From NCBI GenBank assembly GCA_964510585.1, contig CAZECW010000043.1, positions 1-13,760 on the forward strand: 13,760 bases of DNA, given 5' to 3'. Shown here piece by piece: positions 1,246-13,399 of the stretch. A program made the position numbers and the translations under genes. Origin of the DNA: an uncultured archaeon (lineage in GTDB: Archaea; Asgardarchaeota; Jordiarchaeia; Jordiarchaeales; Jordiarchaeaceae). Below the pieces are notes generated by a model. The model saw only the letters and a program-made list of their open reading frames with translations, did not search any database and had not been told where the DNA came from. Position 1 is the stretch's first letter; each line of letters starts with the position of its first letter.

Positions 1246-2085
1246 TCATTTCCAAATACTGACGGTATCATATGTCACTGGGCTGCGATTTTTTGTACAT
1301 TCTGAGGGTTTTATTTTAAATTGTAGCTGACTAGCGGAAGTATCTATCCATCCGCTTTTTGTCCGATGGTTGCCGCTTTTTCTTTGGAGTTCTACACGAC
1401 CTATTAATAAACTTCCTCTTGGTGTTATTCTTACGTCGCCTTTACAGTAAATATCAAGCACATCTTTGGTGGGCAGAACATAATAATAAGCCAAGCCTTC
1501 TTGTCGCTTAACTATGATAAAAAATTCAATGTTTTCATCGCCGATAAATATGTCTTTTAGAATTTTCACTTTGTTTTCATTAAAGAATCTTATCATGTTT
1601 TCTATGGTTTGCTGTTCCATTTGATTTAGGAACGTTCTCCTTCCTTTGCTGAGTTTACCTGGTGACGTCCCTAAGAGTTCAGCCTCACTTTTGAGTTCTT
1701 CAATCGAAACAGGATTGCCCTTTACATCAACCTCACCAACAAACTTCTTTAAAGCTATGTATACATCTTTTGGTATTGACCATTTTTGGGCATAAAAATC
1801 TACATGCTTTCTTTCAACATGATTATAATCAAATCCGATATCAACATCAAATTCCTTTGCAGATATTAAGATACGTCTGCCGTTAGATGTTATGGCTATA
1901 TCTGCCTTTGCTCGAGGGGGACACTTGGATGCGGAGTATAACTCTAAACGTAAACCAGACAAATCTCCTATAGCTTTGATTATTTTCTTGCCAACTTCAT
2001 CATTGGTGTTTATTGCATTTATGATTCTATCTTCAGCTTTTAGGCCTCTTCTTGCTGCTTTCGAAGCCAACTTTTTATCCTCCAT
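1246..2085 (-). CDS. Type II restriction endonuclease, HinP1I/MspI-like family (279 aa)
   Basis: Colinear similarity to R.HinP1I as I recall it: ASKAARRGLKAE18DRI, KAD62I, ISAK77, YNHVERKHVDFYAQKW, LKKFVGEV, RRTFL, and the C-terminal ITPRGSLLIGRVELQRK...QLQFKIKPSE (HinP1I: LSPRGSINFGRVTIQRK...MLQFKIDPTE). Confidence 0.88.
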   Translation of the reverse strand: MEDKKLASKAARRGLKAEDRIINAINTNDEVGKKIIKAIGDLSGLRLELYSASKCPPRAKADIAITSNGRRILISAKEFDVDIGFDYNHVERKHVDFYAQKWSIPKDVYIALKKFVGEVDVKGNPVSIEELKSEAELLGTSPGKLSKGRRTFLNQMEQQTIENMIRFFNENKVKILKDIFIGDENIEFFIIVKRQEGLAYYYVLPTKDVLDIYCKGDVRITPRGSLLIGRVELQRKSGNHRTKSGWIDTSASQLQFKIKPSECTKNRSPVTYDTVSIWK

Positions 2086-2280: not shown

Positions 2281-4431
2281 TTAGCAGCATAAAACGTTCT
2301 TAAGTAGAGAGTAGAGTTCACGCAGAATTGTTGAATCTTCAATTCCAATGATTTCAAACAAAGTTTTATCCATTTCTAATCTAAAGTCTTCCCACAGTTG
2401 AAACACTAGTGGCTCTAATTTTCTTTCAGCCATTTTATCTAGGTTATTGGCAAGCTCTTGCAGTGCATGTTTATCTAATAAGTTTACATTGATAACTGGC
2501 ATCCTTAGGTAGTCTTCCTCCAAGAATCGTGTCCATCTCTCGCTTATTTTCCTACTCGCAACAATGAAATATGCAATAAACAGTGAGCTATTGAACCATA
2601 ACGCTAAAGCTTTGTCCTTAAGATCATCATTAAATGTTGATATATAGAAATTTTTAGATGCTGTTAAGGGTTCTTGTGTGTAGCATGCAAAAACGCCACG
2701 TTTGCTGAAAGATGGGTCAATCTTGTCAGGTAAAAATATGCGCCCGAAAGGCTTTTTCACATTTATTTGCCTATTCACATGGCTATACCAATATCGTCCA
2801 AATGCTCTTACCGCTGGTTTTGCGGTGGAGTGTAGCTTCCCCCACCTGATATACTCAGCAATATCAGGAGGTAGTTCTGACTCATTTTTTGGAGGGATTG
2901 AAAAAAAGTAGTGCTTAACCAATGGGATAATACAGTCTACATATAGTTCTGGTTTTCTCAAAGCAGGAGTTATAAACTCTCTATCGATATGAAGCTCCAT
3001 TTCCGTATCGTTGTTTTTTATCAATATTTCCTCAGCATTCTCAGCAACAATTCTCCAATATTTATTTGGAATAAGGAAGAATTCGGGGCCATACATTTCA
3101 ATGCCTCGCACAATTCGTTTTTCGTTGAAAGCATCTGACCAAGTAGCCACCACGCCTCTTTTAGCTGCCTGTGCAAAGATCTTAGTTATCAGTTCTCTCA
3201 ATGGATTTTGACCAAAGAGGGTTAACCAATTCATGTGCCAAGGATATGGAACTTTTGAAATGTTGACCCAGTTTAGGCGGCTATTCGTTAACCTGGCCCC
3301 TTTAAATATATTAGAAAGTTCTTCTAATAGATTTAAATCGTAGGAGTCGATCGTTAAAAACGCTGTTTCAAAATCAGTTTTTCTTTTATTTGCTATTAAT
3401 ACCAGTTCTTTAAATCCGCTGTCGATTGAAAACGACGGTTCGAAAAAGTCCACCATAGCTTGGATCCAGTATTTATCCTTAAGCAGAGCTTTAGCCGCTT
3501 CACCATACAAAGTGTAAAATGTCGACACAGGAAGGACTGATACTAACAAACCATCTTCTTCCAAAAGATAGTCCATCAAAAAAAGCGATATTAATTGAAG
3601 ATTCTGTTGTCTTCTTTTAACATACTTATCGTATCCCAATTTTTGAACGAATTTAGTTAGGAAGACTCTATAGTCTTTATCAAGGATTTCCCACCTTGTA
3701 AACGGAGGATTTGTGAGAATCACATTAGCCTTAGGAACCATTTCTTTTGATAGCTCAGTATAAGACTCGGTATATGACAAGAGAGATTGTGATGTTGGCG
3801 TTTGATAAACCATTTTAAAGGCATCTCCAACGATTATCTTAGCCTTTTGGTATTCTCCTTTTAAAGCATGTGCCACTGCTGAATATGCTACCAATGCGGA
3901 GAGAGGATGAGGCTCAATCCCCCAGATTTTGTTGATATGTGATGGTGGAAGTTCTTTTATGGCTTCAGATAACGTTAATCCAGAACCAAGGAAAGGGTCT
4001 GACAGTATTAAGGGGCGTTCATATCTCTTCGCGTACTCTAAAGCAAGAAGTGCCATTAGTCTCAATCCGATTGGCTTAGTATAATAAGCTGCCAGCCTCT
4101 TTCTGTTAGCGGGAGCTATTAACCTCGCCACTTTGATCTGGCTTTCAAAAATATCTTCTAATGCTAACGTTTCCTGTTTGTGGGTCACAAGTTCTTCTAG
4201 CACGAAGATATCCTTCTGAGGCAGCGATGCAAGCGACTTTAAAGGAGCGAAATTTGTTAACTTAATTAGAGTCGAAATATCCGGCATATTTGTTGATTTA
4301 AGAATAGCTGCCAAGGAAGTGACGATAATTTCTAAGGCTGCAGCTGAATCTATGACGTCCCTCACTTTAAGAATGGCCAATAAGCGTTTTATTAACTCTT
4401 TATTTTTTATCTCTTTAAACATTTTCAGCAT
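2281..4431 (-). CDS. Gamma-class amino (N6-adenine or N4-cytosine) DNA methyltransferase with C-terminal target-recognition domain (716 aa)
   Basis: Motif order X (AAYYTKP), I (DPFLGSG), II (WGIE), III (IIVGDAF), IV (ILTNPPF), then DGLLVSVLP. The long C-terminal region resembles TaqI/Eco57I-type TRDs (KALALWFNSSL...YLRMPVI). No fused nuclease domain is apparent. Confidence 0.9.
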   Translation of the reverse strand: MLKMFKEIKNKELIKRLLAILKVRDVIDSAAALEIIVTSLAAILKSTNMPDISTLIKLTNFAPLKSLASLPQKDIFVLEELVTHKQETLALEDIFESQIKVARLIAPANRKRLAAYYTKPIGLRLMALLALEYAKRYERPLILSDPFLGSGLTLSEAIKELPPSHINKIWGIEPHPLSALVAYSAVAHALKGEYQKAKIIVGDAFKMVYQTPTSQSLLSYTESYTELSKEMVPKANVILTNPPFTRWEILDKDYRVFLTKFVQKLGYDKYVKRRQQNLQLISLFLMDYLLEEDGLLVSVLPVSTFYTLYGEAAKALLKDKYWIQAMVDFFEPSFSIDSGFKELVLIANKRKTDFETAFLTIDSYDLNLLEELSNIFKGARLTNSRLNWVNISKVPYPWHMNWLTLFGQNPLRELITKIFAQAAKRGVVATWSDAFNEKRIVRGIEMYGPEFFLIPNKYWRIVAENAEEILIKNNDTEMELHIDREFITPALRKPELYVDCIIPLVKHYFFSIPPKNESELPPDIAEYIRWGKLHSTAKPAVRAFGRYWYSHVNRQINVKKPFGRIFLPDKIDPSFSKRGVFACYTQEPLTASKNFYISTFNDDLKDKALALWFNSSLFIAYFIVASRKISERWTRFLEEDYLRMPVINVNLLDKHALQELANNLDKMAERKLEPLVFQLWEDFRLEMDKTLFEIIGIEDSTILRELYSLLKNVLCC

Positions 4432-4461
4432 CCTATTTTTTATATAATTCTCTGGGCGTAC

Positions 4462-4477
4462 AAAAGTTTTTAGTGCA
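4462..4477 (-). promoter_or_regulatory. Repeated 16-bp motif TGCACTAAAAACTTTT (BRE/TATA-like), copy 1, upstream of the MTase
   Basis: Minus strand reads TGCACTAAAAACTTTTGTACGCCC. The 16-mer ends 30 nt before the MTase ATG at 4431, a spacing compatible with an archaeal BRE-TATA promoter. It is identical over 16 bp to the copy at 13384-13399. Confidence 0.6.
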
Positions 4478-4558
4478 TTTTTAAACAGAAAGATTGGAGT
4501 AGTGCTTCAGCGCAACACACCAAACGCTTTTACTGTATGTATTCAATTTTGACCAATT

Positions 4559-5065
4559 TTAGGTCGTAATAATTTCTACAAAATTTTTGAAGGTTTCGGA
4601 CTTTTCTATAGCTTTTTTGATATCCACCTCTTCCTTTGCTAATCTTTTGTAGATTTCGGGACTTTTAATGTATTGTTTGCCCCTTTTCTGCATTAGTTCC
4701 CTAAGTTCCCCTTCTGGATTTATTATTTCCTCTGGATTGTTTACAGAGAGCCCTGCAAGGATCCACGACTCTACACTTCTTTTTACAGCGATTACCTGTG
4801 ACTGTAATATTTGACTTTCTAGTTGCCTGACTTTTCTTGTTATTTTGTTTATGAGGGCGGTTGTATCTCTACCCGCTCTATGGAGATCTTTAAGTATTAT
4901 GGCTTTATCAAATTCCCCCGTTAGAGCTTTTAGAAGGCGGCTTACCTTTTCTGGTCTATTCCCTCTCATAGGGTGTACTTTACATTTAACCTGGAGTTTT
5001 TCGACAATGCCTTCAACGAAACCTCTGTCGGTTAAGCCTTCAACTATTATTAAGGTGCTGTTCAT
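4559..5065 (-). CDS. Small TOPRIM-fold protein (DUF4276/DUF4435/OLD-TOPRIM-like putative nuclease), 168 aa
   Basis: N-terminal IIVEGLTD TOPRIM motif, ILKDLH (DxH at the DxD position) and SVESWILAG. The preferred start ATG at 5065 overlaps the ATPase stop as ATGA (5062-5065), indicating translational coupling. The ORF track start at 5095 is probably too long. Confidence 0.8.
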   Translation of the reverse strand: MNSTLIIVEGLTDRGFVEGIVEKLQVKCKVHPMRGNRPEKVSRLLKALTGEFDKAIILKDLHRAGRDTTALINKITRKVRQLESQILQSQVIAVKRSVESWILAGLSVNNPEEIINPEGELRELMQKRGKQYIKSPEIYKRLAKEEVDIKKAIEKSETFKNFVEIITT

Positions 5066-6174
5066 GGCGTTCCACCGACTATCCCAGATAACCATGCTTC
5101 GCCTAGGGTGCCTCCTTCCTCCAAAAACCGCTTTACGCGCTCCATCTCACTAGTGGTGGACAACTTTTTCACTTTGGTTTCCAAGTCTTCTTTTCCTACC
5201 AAGTAAACTTCTTCTGGTCTGACGTAATCCAGCAGATATGGTGAATGTGTCATTATAACAACTTGGGATGGGGAATCCCTAGCTAGGCTCATCAAAGTCT
5301 CAAGCAAATAAGGATGTATACAGTTCTCAGGCTCCTCCAAAACCACAAGACTGAAACCACCGTATAAAGCGGAGATTATGGCAAGAATACGCAAAGTACC
5401 ATCAGAAATATTATGAGGCTCTAGAGGCTCATCTAAACCTTTAATTTTAATCCATATCTCAACGCTAGTTCCTTCTATGTGTGGGATAATCTCCTCAACT
5501 TCGGGAATCATGCTACGCAATGTTTCTTCGATGCGTCCAAAATCCTTTCGCCTCTCAGTATAAAGATAAAGCAAATAACGAGCCAAATTTTCACCATGGT
5601 ACTTCAGGAAAGGTTGTTCGGCAACAGAATTTTCAAGCCGAAGAATATCTGGAGCAAATGAATGAACAGAAATCTTTCCTATACTAGAGGCCAAATGATA
5701 AATTTCTGCTTCCATATCTGAAGGTAGAGAAGTTAATACGCTTTTAGAAGTCATTCTACCATAATAAGCTTGTCCACCCCCGGAAATTAAACCCCCTCTT
5801 GTCTCACCCTTAATACGAACACCGTACTCACTGCCATCATGAGTTATAACTGGTTCATTAGCCATTAATATTTGTTCAAAATATCTTTCATTAGTCAATT
5901 CTAGCCTGTATCCATACTTAGTACTTCCAATAAGCATTTCCAACACAATATGTACTCCTACGGCAGGGTTAAAATTAAAAGATAAGTCCCTCAAGCGTTT
6001 ATAGCCTTCCAAAGCGGGTATCCCCTCTTTTGCATGTTTTGCTACCAATCGAAAAACCTTTGCAATGTTGCTTTTGCCGCTGGCATTCGGCCCTATGAAA
6101 ACATTTACTTTTCCCAGTTCTATATCAACATTCTTGAGGCTTAGAAAGTTTTTAACATGAAGTCGTGTAAACAT
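5062..6174 (-). CDS. ABC-superfamily ATPase (AAA_15/AAA_21, OLD/AriA-like), about 370 aa
   Basis: Starts MFTRLHVKNFLSLKNV, a typical N-terminus for this family. Walker A GPNASGKS, signature ISDGT, Walker B/D-loop VVLEEPENCIHP, H-loop MTHSPY, conserved C-terminal LGEAWLSG. Confidence 0.9.
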   Translation of the reverse strand: MFTRLHVKNFLSLKNVDIELGKVNVFIGPNASGKSNIAKVFRLVAKHAKEGIPALEGYKRLRDLSFNFNPAVGVHIVLEMLIGSTKYGYRLELTNERYFEQILMANEPVITHDGSEYGVRIKGETRGGLISGGGQAYYGRMTSKSVLTSLPSDMEAEIYHLASSIGKISVHSFAPDILRLENSVAEQPFLKYHGENLARYLLYLYTERRKDFGRIEETLRSMIPEVEEIIPHIEGTSVEIWIKIKGLDEPLEPHNISDGTLRILAIISALYGGFSLVVLEEPENCIHPYLLETLMSLARDSPSQVVIMTHSPYLLDYVRPEEVYLVGKEDLETKVKKLSTTSEMERVKRFLEEGGTLGEAWLSGIVGGTP

Positions 6175-6382
6175 GGTTTTGACAAACTCCGTGCATTTAA
6201 CTTTTAAAACACCCAATTTAAACATTGTTACTAAACATTACAACACTCAAATCGATTTTTTGTTTGAGTCATGAGCTGGACTGTACATGAACCGATAGAT
6301 TAACCCATGTGGATACAACTTCTTATTTTTGCGCACCTATACAATTACTCTTCCAATAATTTTTCTAGATTATTCGAGCATA

Positions 6383-6398
6383 AAAAGCTTTTAGTGCA
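6383..6398 (-). promoter_or_regulatory. Repeated 16-bp motif, copy 2 (TGCACTAAAAGCTTTT), upstream of the ATPase-TOPRIM pair
   Basis: 15/16 match to copies 1 and 3. It is followed by TAT, giving a TATA-like TTTTTAT. It lies about 200 nt upstream of the preferred ATPase start, in the gap after the radical SAM gene. Confidence 0.5.
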
Positions 6399-6488
6399 CT
6401 TTGGATATTAGATTATCAACTAACCTTTGTACGGCTTGCCTCAAAGCTAGGGAGGCAGAAATCTCTAAACTCCTACTTTTAGTGTTTC

Positions 6489-7550
6489 CTACAGTATACA
6501 GTTGCATGAGACTAGTTCCCAGACGCCGCTTGTGCCAGGGGGATTCAGTAATCCTTTACTGACCAGCTTCTGCCACATGTCTGATGTCTCCTTGCAAAGG
6601 GCTATGTGTTTCTCATATCCGTTTTCTCTAAGTTTCTTTATAATGTGAGTGTATATTTCGATTCTTAACTCCGTGTTTAACTTGAGTCCCCACCCAGTTT
6701 TTTCACTTTTATCAAGATACTTAAGCCACTCCCTATCTTTTATAAACCTCAACGTTTTTGTTAACCCTCTCAAACTTCCAATAGTTATTCTTTCAGGTTT
6801 TAAACCATATTCCTTAAGCATCATTTTTATGAGTACAGCGTAGTCTATTCTCCAGCCATCAATGGGAATTATGGGATCTAAGCGAATCCTAAATGTGAAT
6901 CCTTTTCCTTGGAGAAGCTTAGATGCTTCTAAACGCTCATTTGGAGGCGCTGCTCCCTTTTCGTAGAGTTGGGAAACTCTAGGAGGGTTAACCGAAAATG
7001 CGATTATGAAGAATTCATTTAAGCCTTTATCTTCCAGAAGTGGGGCTACGTGGCGGACACCACCCTTTGTCAGCAGTAGAATCTTATGGTTTGGATGACA
7101 CTCTAGCACCGGTAGTACAGCTTCAATCAGTGCTCGGGTCCAGTCTGGCATAGCTAAACTGTCAGTTAGCTCACCAGCATTTAGCAGAACCCTTAATCCT
7201 TGACTGTCAGCCCACCCCAGAAACTGATCAAGAATCCTAGAAGCATCCGCTAAATTCTTCATTTTTGGAGCCTTATTACCAAAAAAAGTCCCATTAAGAT
7301 AGCAGTAGCTACAGTTAAACGGGCAACCTATGAGTGGCTTAAATTCCCAGAAATGAGGACAAACAATATCCCCAGCCGGCTTACTAAACAAAGCAATAAA
7401 GCTAGAATAAAAAAACCTTCTAGGAACACTAACTTCCATATAAGCACCTTTCTCCAACACTCCCTTGCCTTCACGCCCAAAGTAAGAATGTAAGCTAGAT
7501 GCATCCCTAACCAACTCGTCCCTACGAACATAATAGTGTGCAACACTCAA
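6489..7550 (-). CDS. Spore photoproduct lyase (SplB)-like radical SAM protein (353 aa, TTG start)
   Basis: CxxxCxxC motif GCPFNCSYCYL, followed by AGELTDSLA, LLLTK, AFSVNP...YEKGAAPPNERLEA, RLDPIIP..GW, ITIGSLR and ALCKE, colinear with the SPL fold. Confidence 0.88.
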   Translation of the reverse strand: MSVAHYYVRRDELVRDASSLHSYFGREGKGVLEKGAYMEVSVPRRFFYSSFIALFSKPAGDIVCPHFWEFKPLIGCPFNCSYCYLNGTFFGNKAPKMKNLADASRILDQFLGWADSQGLRVLLNAGELTDSLAMPDWTRALIEAVLPVLECHPNHKILLLTKGGVRHVAPLLEDKGLNEFFIIAFSVNPPRVSQLYEKGAAPPNERLEASKLLQGKGFTFRIRLDPIIPIDGWRIDYAVLIKMMLKEYGLKPERITIGSLRGLTKTLRFIKDREWLKYLDKSEKTGWGLKLNTELRIEIYTHIIKKLRENGYEKHIALCKETSDMWQKLVSKGLLNPPGTSGVWELVSCNCIL

Positions 7551-8150
7551 AACTTATAACCCCTTAAGAATTCTAAAACAGACTACTATAACCGTTGAAG
7601 GACTATGTTATTAATTGTTCTATAAACATCTTTACTTTTTCGAGAATCTTTATGAGGGAAAGAAGGAAGAGCTGAGGGGTCGATAGAAGGATAAATAGGA
7701 TTTTATCGATTTTTGATGACACGATGTATTAGGTATGTATTTTTTGGTGTTTGGTATGTAGGAGTGTTTTTCTTAAATCTTCTAATACGTCTTGGAATTG
7801 GAAAAGAAGGAGTATATAGCCTCCTTCACAAGTAGTCAACAAACAAAAACACATACTCCCTGTGCAAAAAACATGCCTATAACATTAGGTCCTATTAATC
7901 TCCAAAAAATTAATAGAGAATATAAATGCTGATATTAATCCTGTTTCTGGAAGAGTTTAATACTGTCCATAGTTTCACGAATAATTCTTATATTCTTCTT
8001 TGATCTAATTGATATTTAGAACCAAAAAAGTATAATGGAAAGAGGAATTAGTGAACATTAAACATGATTAGCGATTTTATCTTTTTTGGGACATATGTCA
8101 TTATGTTTATGCGTCTTTCTTGTTTCGTCAGGTTATAATTTATCTATCCA

Positions 8151-10430
8151 GTGAAAAGACAGAAGATGAGGGTCGGTTTTATCTTGTTTATCAAAAAATG
8201 GGAAGACTATTTTAAATGTCCAGAAAAATGTACCTTTGAATATTTTAAAAAAAGTAGATTAGATGGTAAACCCATTGCATATGCTTTAAGCCAAGCAGAT
8301 GAAGAACTCTTGGCGCACTATGAATTCAAAACTAGTAAAACAGTACTCCCCTGTTTAAATCCATTTATTGGAAACAATCATCAGAAGCTGGAGAACTGGC
8401 TCTTGGAAAATTTTACGGATTTACTTAAAGAAAGATCTGCTTTGGAGGAAGAATCTGTAAACGTCTTAAAAAAAGAGTTTATTGATTTTCGTATGCATCT
8501 TTTCGAATTGTTGTATACGCATTCAATGTCGGAATCGCACAAGATTCTATTCTTTAAAAAACAGTTGAAGAAAGAAGGTTTAGATCCTAGCATTGTAGAT
8601 GAAATTGCTAGATATCTAATTCCGGGAAGCACCCTATTTCTTCTTGAGCTATATCTCGGAATCTTATTTGATAGTACAAATATGTATGCCCTTAAGAAAG
8701 TTCAGGATACCATTACTAAACTTAAAAGGGACAAATTAAAGGAAGTTCTTGGAAAACCCGAATTATTGGTTACACCCTGGAAGCATCAAAATGAAGCTGT
8801 AGAAGCTTGGTTCAAATCAGGTCGGCGAGGAATTATAGAGATGGCCACTGCAACTGGCAAAACCTTAGTGGGGCTGAAAGCCGCCCTGGATTTATGGAAG
8901 AGAAACGAGAATGAGAAATTAGAAGTTCTTGTTCTAACGCATTCTATTGCAATATTAAATCAGTGGAGAAGAGAAGCAATAGATAAATTAGGCTTCATCG
9001 ACGACCCCCTTTTAGATTATAAAATACCGTTATGTTACAAAGGTTTCAGAATTTCATTTAACACTCTACAAACCGTTTACAAAGCTCCTCAAAATTACTA
9101 TGCGGATCTTTTAATAGTAGACGAAGTACATCATGCAGCAGCTATACAATTCAGGAAGGCTCTTGAACTGCCATGTAAATGGAAGATGGGACTTTCAGCC
9201 ACAATTGAAGGCAAAGAGCGACCATACTATCTGGAAAAAAATTTAGGACGTATAGTTTATACACTTTCCCTTAGTGATGCCATCGAGAGAGGCATTATAC
9301 CAGAATTTGAATGGAATATTTATGTGACATATTTGAGTGTTGAAGAAGAATATGAGTTCAAAGAAATCTCCAAAAAAATCCGTGACCTCTTTGACAAGAT
9401 ATCTCAAGACGAAAAAAATATTGAAAGTATTTCCAATGGAAAAATTAAGCGACTTGAAACTCTATCAGATTTTGTAAGATTGATTGAAAAGGCCAGATAC
9501 GAGGGAAAAGAAATTCCAGATGAGTGGAAAATCTTGAGAGCACTAATATTTCAAAGGCGCAGAATTCTATATACCTCCAGTCCAAAAATAGATAGAGCAC
9601 TGGAAATTGCAAGTAGAGAGGCAACCGAGAAGAAGTGCGTAATTTTCACTATGGATATAGAATCATGTGAAAAAATCGCTGAAGCGCTTAAGCCTTTTAA
9701 CGCGTTATTTGTGCATTCTGGAATCTCCGATAAAGAAAGAGATAATAGACTCAGAAGTTTCAGAGAATCTCCGAGAGGTGTGCTTGTCGCACCGAAAATG
9801 CTAGACGAAGGCATCGATGTACCTGATGCAGAAGTTGGGATAAATGTAGCTTCGTCCAAGACGAAATTACAGTTAATTCAAAGAATAGGGAGAATCCTCA
9901 GGAAAAAATCAGGCAAGAAACCCGTTTTCCATCATTTCGTAGCGATACCTAGCGAAAAGGAATTCATCTTGCAGGAAGATGGGCTTAACTACTTGGAAGA
10001 ACTATCATGGGTACTAGATACAGCACTTCGTATGGGCGTTAAGATAAGAATACCTGATAGCGAAATTAAAATAACTGAACTCCACGAGAAATCTGAAGAA
10101 TTTGTAGGAAAGTTATTAAAACAGGGAGTAAAGATATCCGTCGGAAGCTATGGAGTTATTAGGATGGATAACATTCTATCACAATTTAAAGAACCAGTGA
10201 AAAATAGACTGATGAAAATGCTTGAGGAGGAGACAGAGAATCTTACGGACGAAAAATGGCATGAATTGTTACTTAAAGCTCACCGTGAAGAAGAGAAGTT
10301 AGAAGGCGATCAATTAAATTTGCCCGGAAACTGGTGGTTATTAATAGCAGGTGGAAGGAACCCTAAAATTATAAAAGAAATCATAGGGAAATCTCTCGGC
10401 ATAACCTACGAGGATAATCCAGAAGAGTGA
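8151..10430 (+). CDS. SF2 DExH helicase/translocase (ResIII/XPB-like) with about 205-aa unknown N-terminal and about 160-aa C-terminal extensions (759 aa)
   Basis: Q motif PWKHQNEA, motif I MATATGKT, motif II IVDEVHH, motif III GLSAT, motif V MLDEGIDVPD, motif VI QRIGRILR. The start could be GTG 8151 or ATG 8166. Confidence 0.9.
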   Translation: MKRQKMRVGFILFIKKWEDYFKCPEKCTFEYFKKSRLDGKPIAYALSQADEELLAHYEFKTSKTVLPCLNPFIGNNHQKLENWLLENFTDLLKERSALEEESVNVLKKEFIDFRMHLFELLYTHSMSESHKILFFKKQLKKEGLDPSIVDEIARYLIPGSTLFLLELYLGILFDSTNMYALKKVQDTITKLKRDKLKEVLGKPELLVTPWKHQNEAVEAWFKSGRRGIIEMATATGKTLVGLKAALDLWKRNENEKLEVLVLTHSIAILNQWRREAIDKLGFIDDPLLDYKIPLCYKGFRISFNTLQTVYKAPQNYYADLLIVDEVHHAAAIQFRKALELPCKWKMGLSATIEGKERPYYLEKNLGRIVYTLSLSDAIERGIIPEFEWNIYVTYLSVEEEYEFKEISKKIRDLFDKISQDEKNIESISNGKIKRLETLSDFVRLIEKARYEGKEIPDEWKILRALIFQRRRILYTSSPKIDRALEIASREATEKKCVIFTMDIESCEKIAEALKPFNALFVHSGISDKERDNRLRSFRESPRGVLVAPKMLDEGIDVPDAEVGINVASSKTKLQLIQRIGRILRKKSGKKPVFHHFVAIPSEKEFILQEDGLNYLEELSWVLDTALRMGVKIRIPDSEIKITELHEKSEEFVGKLLKQGVKISVGSYGVIRMDNILSQFKEPVKNRLMKMLEEETENLTDEKWHELLLKAHREEEKLEGDQLNLPGNWWLLIAGGRNPKIIKEIIGKSLGITYEDNPEE

Positions 10431-10823
10431 ATAAAATTTTACATAAAGCAGAAATTATTAAGAATATTTAGACTTCTTAATGCCTTCGGGACACGCTATC
10501 TTATTGTAGTGATGATAGGGCTGCTGTTGTGATTTCTATCAATCCTTCGATTCCAAGCGTGATTCTCACAAGAGCCGCCACCAAAACGTTGTAATCCCTT
10601 ATTTTGTTAAGAACTCTCCAGCGATCTCATAACCATTGTAAAACTATGATTTTCTTATTTCAGTTTATATCGGCAAATATGATTGTCAAGCAAAAAATAA
10701 GAAATTTATTATTTATTAAAATGAATTAAAAAATAATTATTGCTTTTCCATTTTTCTTTATTATTTTAGAAAAAAAATTAATATAAACAAAGAAATTTCA
10801 TAGAATTTAAAGACAAATTACCT

Positions 10824-13383: not shown

Positions 13384-13399
13384 TGCACTAAAAACTTTT
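13384..13399 (+). promoter_or_regulatory. Repeated 16-bp motif, copy 3 (TGCACTAAAAACTTTT), pointing toward the IS481-like end
   Basis: Exact 16-bp match to copy 1. Similarity continues beyond it (TACGTCC here versus GTACGCCC in copy 1). No downstream ORF occurs before the IS end at 13517. Confidence 0.5.

Follow-up and report, generated by a model that had tools for sequence, protein, structure and literature searches.

The closest described relative of the gene reported here is spore photoproduct lyase (SPL; SplB, structures 4FHC-4FHG), a radical S-adenosylmethionine (SAM) enzyme. Whereas radical SAM enzymes usually bind SAM through a GGE motif, SPL lacks this motif and employs S142/D143; the SAM carboxylate is held by K174 and S195, the lesion is contacted by R193, and in clostridial SPLs the hydrogen-donor cysteine has moved to the position of S76 (PMC3467042). 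Our subject is an SPL-like gene at 6489..7550, on the minus strand, of contig CAZECW010000043.1 from an uncultured archaeon of the Jordiarchaeaceae (assembly GCA_964510585.1); the window, as we call the stretch of DNA analysed, is the entire 13.76-kb contig, and its genes are of defence type. We estimate a probability of about 0.6 that this gene is the widowed subunit of an uncharacterised, probably DNA-modifying module, in which an SPL-fold radical SAM protein is paired with the methyltransferase-fold protein TcmP, left behind in a defence island whose cassettes are shuffled. Two other groups of systems frame the comparison. DUF5131, or "phage Gp37/Gp68", is the canonical partner of TcmP, as given in the family description of NCBIfam TIGR04474. 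Prokaryotic viperins are radical SAM enzymes in immunity that act on free nucleotides, and OpnA of Ophion is a radical SAM enzyme in a defence system of the rSAM-PHP-PRTase type. Viperins and Ophion resemble the system described here in that a radical SAM enzyme is encoded in a defence context, but they have neither an SPL-type fold nor a TcmP partner.

The open reading frame (ORF) encodes 353 amino acids from a TTG start. That start codon, a GGGG ribosome-binding site, the N-terminal 36 residues and about 80 nucleotides (nt) of upstream sequence are all kept in relatives, and for this reason the long form of the ORF is taken as the gene. The conserved 5' region, 7551..7631 on the same strand, contains a TTTATA-like box in addition to the ribosome-binding site and presumably acts as the promoter; nucleotide homology with the closest relative, locus L138, ends at 7631. 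The protein scores weakly on two Pfam models but passes both, with 40.2 bits for SPL, PF20903 (cut-off 27), and 30.4 bits for Radical_SAM, PF04055 (cut-off 29.5). For its AlphaFold2 model (pLDDT 89.7), the best match in the PDB by Foldseek is SPL (E 1.6e-13). Structural comparison by VIA aligns the two with Z 23.4 and a root-mean-square deviation of 2.5 Å over 257 residues, ahead of a second tier of MqnE, RlmN and LIAS at Z of about 15 (15.3 for the next family).

With SPL the window protein shares a partial TIM-barrel radical SAM fold, the CX3CX2C cluster motif (C76-x3-C80-x2-C83) with its Y-C-Y-L, the SAM contacts, and residues E197, R206, W233 and Y237. It differs in overall sequence (about 18-20% identity), in its N-terminal domain, in a 33-residue C-terminal extension ending in CNC, and in four extra conserved cysteines: C64 in a CPHF motif, C319 in ALCKE, and C349 and C351 in a terminal SCNC. 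On TIGR04070, the model for canonical SPL, it reaches 55 bits against a cut-off of 400, aligned over profile positions 84-253 only. The original prediction had described an SPL-like radical SAM enzyme that is not a canonical SPL, that carries these motifs, and that lacks the donor cysteine at the aligned position; on all of this it was right.

The replacement of that cysteine by glutamate, however, has a different meaning from the one first given to it. In a HMMER alignment to the SPL of G. thermodenitrificans, LNAGELTDS lies opposite FEAA(S)TSD, so that E127 falls on residue 140, the donor cysteine of the wild type, while T129/D130, K162 and S186 fall on S142/D143, K174 and S195 of SPL. A125-G126-E127 and T129-D130 make up the SAM-binding region of the window protein. 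The lesion-binding R193 aligns with Ala184, a position occupied by Ser in 91% of the family; the beta-hairpin region of SPL with R304/Y305 lies outside the sequence alignment, and the profile-to-PDB alignment begins at SPL residue 85. Substitution of glutamate for cysteine is real, but it does not look like a local adaptation: all of 108 relatives examined carry E127 (108 of 108), and the A-G-E triplet lies 43 residues after the cluster, the usual place of GGE. Because the residue is family-wide and found at that place, we read it as probably the ancestral, SAM-related glutamate of a GGE motif, rather than a replacement catalytic residue.

A cysteine elsewhere in the protein bears on whether it might be a true repair lyase, acting on spore photoproduct or on a related ultraviolet or thermal thymine lesion. 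C64, invariant in the family, sits in a loop before beta-1, near the S76 position of SPL (C77 in clostridia) by an inferred rather than residue-resolved mapping, and it may serve as a donor cysteine of the clostridial type; also retained are the fold and SAM contacts of SPL, and Y82/Y84 as the counterpart of its Y96/Y98 pair. We nevertheless consider such an activity highly unlikely. The TIGR04070 score falls far below cut-off, C140 is replaced, R193 is not kept, and the near-obligate TcmP partner described below has no place in SPL chemistry. Canonical SPL belongs to endospore-forming hosts and a conserved repair context, whereas the gene in the window is an accessory, island-borne gene of a non-sporulating archaeon. 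The archaeal host, already suspected from the sequence, is indicated by a gene for ribosomal protein S8e, for which the same search was positive in archaeal controls only; 16S rRNA is not assembled in this genome (96.1% complete, 4.8% contamination), and S8e served as the archaeal marker instead. The gene is judged accessory because it occurs in 7 of 61 related genomes, the window's own included, and in one of five congeners, at 42% identity. No canonical or clostridial SPL sequence was found in the 12 genomes searched (the L028 genome and genomes of its class and phylum).

The homologues of the window protein, of which there are at least 243, mostly archaeal, form a distinct SPL-fold radical SAM family, here called family A; its members are not odd SPLs. 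Loci were gathered from genomes (52) and metagenomes (80), together with several exact-match contigs. Members share a signature of IVCPHF, CPFxCxYCYLxGT, NxGExxDS, RxRxDP, LCKE and a C-terminal CNC. The window protein has all of the signature residues C64, CX3CX2C, G126-E127-x2-D130, RxRxDP, LCKE and C-terminal CNC. Invariant among 108 full-length members are C64, C76, C80, C83, G126, E127, D130, K162, E197, R206, R223, D225 and Y237, and C319, C349 and C351 are 93-97% conserved. All four extra cysteines are found in 101 of 113 relatives, several of the exceptions being sequences cut by contig ends.

Gene order across the family indicates that its usual working partner is TcmP, the "three-Cys-motif partner protein", which has a methyltransferase fold. 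The neighbouring proteins score 65-219 bits on TIGR04474 (cut-off 53) and carry the methyltransferase motif I as DxFAGxG and an invariant D-P motif that corresponds to motif IV and is like that of amino-methyltransferases. Judged on the 96 unique genes with sufficiently long flanks, tcmP is adjacent or fused in 79, lies within 6.5 kb in nine, and is absent in eight; the fused TcmP-radical SAM proteins are 606-712 residues long. When the complex of the window protein with the TcmP of L138 was modelled, it received an ipSAE of 0.89, compared with 0.01 for the best of three controls. Among solved complexes 58 of 80, and among mismatched pairs two of 110, attain that mark. Contact agreement between runs was at least 94%, and the pLDDT of the partner at least 86. 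The model supports binding of the radical SAM protein to TcmP.

Among PADLOC candidates, PDC-M41A and PDC-M30A are matched by the TcmPs of relatives. Like other pairs of TcmP with a three-Cys-motif protein, these systems are encoded by two genes that are fused in some cases and that lie on mobile or defence DNA. They differ from the system described here in the radical partner, which in family A is an SPL-fold CX3CX2C enzyme, and from the window in that its TcmP is missing. The window accordingly belongs to neither PDC-M41 nor PDC-M30: it has no TcmP, and its radical SAM protein, having no match to any PADLOC model, matches none of the radical-partner models of these candidates.

The distribution of family A is patchy and island-borne. 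Cultured phage genomes contain no match to the family; plasmids give two distant bacterial matches and IMG/VR four distant ones, at 34-37% identity. At L037 (7844-11842) and at L020 and L022, the module is duplicated in tandem, in the order radical SAM-TcmP-radical SAM'-TcmP. In some loci there is a further SPL-like radical SAM gene, with GExxDS but without the extra cysteines. During clustering, a neighbour designated B was considered as a paralogue of the radical SAM protein without the cluster; this was rejected, as the single-linkage join had been caused by the fused proteins, and B is TcmP.

In the window, all that remains of this partner is the last 11 codons of tcmP (LGRQKSLNSYF) and the stop codon, at 6447..6482 on the plus strand, converging on the radical SAM gene just as the intact tcmP genes of relatives do. 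No tcmP pseudogene was found in the window beyond these 11 codons. At L138, where the radical SAM gene is 83% identical to that of the window in both amino acid and nucleotide sequence, an intact tcmP of 323 codons, whose product ends in GKQKPLTSYL, converges on the radical SAM gene, with 6 nt between it and the stop of that gene. The two loci are homologous at the nucleotide level from 7631 to 6450 and no further. Adjoining the remnant is the truncated 5' end (81 nt; 6366..6446, plus strand) of a multicopy element, which marks a deletion or rearrangement junction. The element has six other copies in the genome, of which five have in common at least another 70 to 110 nt, missing in the window, and sit 70-110 nt from contig ends. 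With the remnant joined directly to a truncated multicopy element at the point where homology to L138 stops, the sequence evidence is that tcmP was removed by rearrangement at the end of a mobile element. Contigs from an independent hot-spring metagenome study contain the identical junction, with 0 differences, so it is no assembly artefact. Searches by profile, by tblastn and with TIGR04474 found no tcmP elsewhere in the genome, which is 96.1% complete. Within the clade of the window, defined by at least 44% identity, the window and L105 are the only loci with adequate flanks and no TcmP; L070 was not judged as lacking it, since its operon arrangement would need a longer upstream flank than is available. 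The window copy of the radical SAM gene is intact, yet it probably cannot perform the reaction of the pair alone.

The gene neighbourhoods of the family point to DNA. In 20 loci ParB_N is encoded immediately upstream; EVE is a neighbour in at least five, type IIG restriction-modification enzymes in five and Eco57I-like methyltransferases in six, and further neighbours include BrxABC, type I restriction-modification systems, toxin-antitoxin genes and a ParB-bearing element. Had close homologues sat mostly in housekeeping or repair contexts, the idea of a defence-associated enzyme would have suffered; instead they are sparsely distributed and found beside BREX, restriction-modification, toxin-antitoxin, EVE and ParB genes. 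A longer arrangement is complete in L002 (5720-11026) and L003 (5849-11014), with the order 3'-phosphoadenosine-5'-phosphosulfate (PAPS) reductase-TcmP-small ORF-SMC-like ABC ATPase-small ORF-radical SAM, and partial in L067, L070 and L071; it comes from Bathyarchaeia and metagenomes overall. The best PADLOC match of its PAPS reductase is BrxP, followed by SspD and then DndC, and its ATPase is LmuB/DndD-like, which suggests a link between the pair and DNA modification machinery of the sulfur or adenylation type. A different island is shared by L007 (3650-13260), L008 and L087, in which EVE-TcmP and three small genes are followed by a type IIG restriction-modification gene (346 bits) and, 33 nt downstream, the radical SAM gene, co-oriented with the type IIG enzyme and not with TcmP. 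In L007 and L087 tcmP is 4.7-6.4 kb from the radical SAM gene, and L008 is too short to show tcmP; L007 and L008 carry a helicase in addition.

In the ESM Atlas, a Thermodesulfobacteriota cluster (533 residues) has an SPL-like domain fused to GMT-wHTH, PF22560, in 35% of its members, a fusion that hints once more at DNA targeting.

The original prediction proposed a DNA-binding radical enzyme that modifies the cell's own DNA, removes or cross-links modified bases in the DNA of invaders, or repairs a lesion of some other kind. For the window copy, an immune role is doubtful because its partner tcmP has been deleted. What was claimed about the surroundings is confirmed: restriction, methyltransferase, ATPase-Toprim and helicase genes lie around the radical SAM gene, in a defence island that is variable within the genus, five congeners lacking the whole contig save for dispersed repeats and its last 240 nt.

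Several observations weigh against our interpretation of the gene as a widowed subunit. The gene is undecayed in sequence and so may remain in use: of the 58 alignment columns with at least 90% conservation among 108 relatives, the protein retains 56 (the median relative departs from one), and the ratio of nonsynonymous to synonymous substitution rates (dN/dS) relative to L138 is 0.11. The assembly is a metagenome-assembled genome (MAG), and islands are often mis-binned in such assemblies, so tcmP may sit elsewhere in the cell. SPL, which is without TcmP, likewise conserves W233 and Y237 of the predicted interface, so that their retention says little. The argument for DNA as the substrate of the family consists of the fold and the neighbours. 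In the literature we found no functional study of TcmP, of DUF5131, of SPL-like enzymes in defence, or of EVE together with a radical SAM protein. In the Hecatellales/Bathyarchaeia loci L036, L039 and L041, finally, a solo radical SAM gene directly follows EF-2, with no TcmP within up to 10 kb, which means that the gene can persist, and may also act, without TcmP; in L047, from the same group, the EF-2-linked gene is split into two ORFs. A subclade that does have TcmP follows aIF5B (L026, L035). These EF-2 and aIF5B neighbourhoods, in two archaeal lineages, are housekeeping-like rather than defensive, and leave room for a domesticated or an RNA-directed role.

From the same facts it could be argued that the solo enzyme still carries out radical chemistry directed at DNA in this island, whether by itself or after being re-wired to one of its neighbours, for example the N6-type methyltransferase, the ATPase-Toprim pair or the PbeA-like helicase. 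Intactness of the gene and its 5' region and the low dN/dS speak for this, as does the recurrence of the allele, unchanged, in hot-spring metagenomes from different studies (none of the public sequencing runs listed with the allele is of RNA). So do the solo copies syntenic with EF-2 in several Hecatellales MAGs, the position of the gene directly after a type IIG restriction-modification gene in L007, L008 and L087, and the presence at L020 of an orthologue of the window methyltransferase beside a radical SAM-TcmP pair. Set against these are the rarity of solo copies in the clade of the window, where L105 is the only other gene without tcmP among those with adequate flanks, and the nature of dN/dS, which averages over the time before the deletion of tcmP and for that reason cannot show present constraint. 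Moreover, no conserved operon ties the gene to its neighbours in the window, the helicases beside relatives being 23-31% identical to that of the window in partial alignments, and mobile repeats separate the gene from those neighbours. Continued solo function is possible, in our view, but the balance tilts away from it.

The housekeeping-like neighbourhoods also raise the prospect that the pair modifies ribosomal or transfer RNA, with TcmP as an RlmJ-like methyltransferase, the radical SAM protein as an RlmN/Cfr-like enzyme, and the island location incidental. TcmP does have a small amino-methyltransferase-like fold, in the two lineages EF-2 or aIF5B precedes the gene or the pair, and RlmN is among the second-tier structural matches (Z 15). 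SPL is by far the better structural match, however; the recurrent neighbours are DNA proteins (ParB, EVE, restriction-modification, BREX, PAPS-reductase/SMC); and the distribution is patchy even within the genus, unlike that of core RNA-modification genes. An RNA substrate is on these grounds quite unlikely.

For a DNA-modifying radical SAM-TcmP pair, the reaction would proceed as follows. The [4Fe-4S] cluster bound by CX3CX2C would cleave SAM, and the resulting 5'-deoxyadenosyl radical would take a hydrogen atom from a nucleotide of DNA bound in a pocket like that of SPL. TcmP would supply target recognition, a methyl-transfer step, or both, and the four extra conserved cysteines would bind a second metal site. 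The product would be a DNA mark, or a processing step, used by mobile and defence loci.

The proposal of a second metal site draws on LipA/LIAS, with which the window protein shares a cysteine, C64, 12 residues before the cluster motif and a conserved C-terminal tail with C349/C351, in what is possibly an analogous architecture. Structural alignments of the window model to LipA/LIAS extend to the last residue, 353 (Z 14.4-15.1), but there is no sequence motif in common. By this analogy, C64, C319, C349 and C351 may form one metal site reminiscent of the LipA auxiliary cluster, which is bound by a cysteine motif ahead of beta-1 and by the C-terminal tail. A bolder version can be framed, in which these cysteines hold a LipA-like Fe-S cluster on the substrate side of the SPL-type DNA pocket; together with TcmP, sometimes in the PAPS-reductase/SMC operons, a radical insertion or rearrangement self-marks DNA; and the window copy still acts, with the N6-type methyltransferase or the helicase nearby as a substitute for TcmP. 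We regard this combination as unlikely.

Whatever its reaction, family A is a large group of SPL-shaped radical enzymes that spread, together with a methyltransferase-like partner, among the defence islands of archaea and bacteria, near EVE readers, ParB, restriction-modification, BREX and sulfur-activating genes. As such, radical SAM enzymes of immunity are already known from viperins and Ophion; if the pair does write or edit a DNA mark by radical chemistry, this would be a new kind of epigenetic or immune chemistry. The window adds little to the function of the family because the module is broken there. It offers instead a dated natural experiment, in which a radical SAM gene without TcmP has become fixed in a hot-spring population.

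The other genes of the island lie on both sides of the radical SAM gene. On the minus strand are a type II restriction endonuclease of the R.HinP1I family (1246..2085), a 716-residue DNA methyltransferase of the Eco57I/N6-adenine type (2281..4431), and a pair made up of a Toprim/DUF4276 protein, MAD4/HEC-01B-like (4559..5095), and an AAA_21/ABC ATPase that is HEC-01A-, MAD3-, AbiLi- and AriA-like (5062..6225). The genes of the pair overlap by 34 nt, the ATPase gene occupies the place expected of tcmP, and the pair resembles HEC-01, MAD3/MAD4, AbiL and PARIS. An SDH Clp-like protease is also encoded in the window. Scans with Rfam and for tRNAs found nothing in the window. At L020 (4938-7088), a full-length orthologue of the methyltransferase, 43% identical, lies next to a radical SAM-TcmP cluster; this locus comes from an uncultured archaeon unrelated to that of the window and has no counterpart of the restriction endonuclease that neighbours the methyltransferase in the window.

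Divergent from the radical SAM gene, at 8151..10430 on the plus strand, is a superfamily 2 helicase, PbeA/dnd_restrict_1-like, that scores 218 bits for PbeA and 159 bits on TIGR04095 (cut-off 600). No HKD nuclease motif is recognisable in its all-helical N-terminal 200 residues, and no DndC/D/E or PbeB-D genes lie beside it in a search that covered the contig and not the rest of the genome. The helicase is an orphan of the Dnd/Pbe system type. A specific link between helicase and radical SAM gene was considered and rejected on account of the low, partial similarity to the helicases of relatives given above.

Short dispersed repeats separate every gene cassette of the island, at 815-963, 1164-1261, 4453-4511, 6366-6446, 7719-7874, 10485-10599 and 13384-13399. 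They are multicopy in the genome and in congeners, often at contig ends, and a core, CGTAAAAAGTTTTTAGTGCA, occurs at 4455-4477 and 6372-6398 and inverted at 13384-13399. The repeats at 6366-6446 and 7719-7874 bracket the conserved radical SAM cassette. The latter, a second dispersed repeat resembling a miniature inverted-repeat transposable element, is situated upstream of the radical SAM gene, within a spacer of 600 nt, and has six to seven further copies in the genome, plus copies in congeners. The repeats resemble the termini of a mobile element, itself unassembled, through which cassettes are shuffled, and the window is a clear case of defence cassettes cut and rejoined at short multicopy repeats. 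A 129-residue ORF at 853-1242 is mostly covered by the repeats at 815-963 and 1164-1261, has no family match, and is probably not a gene.

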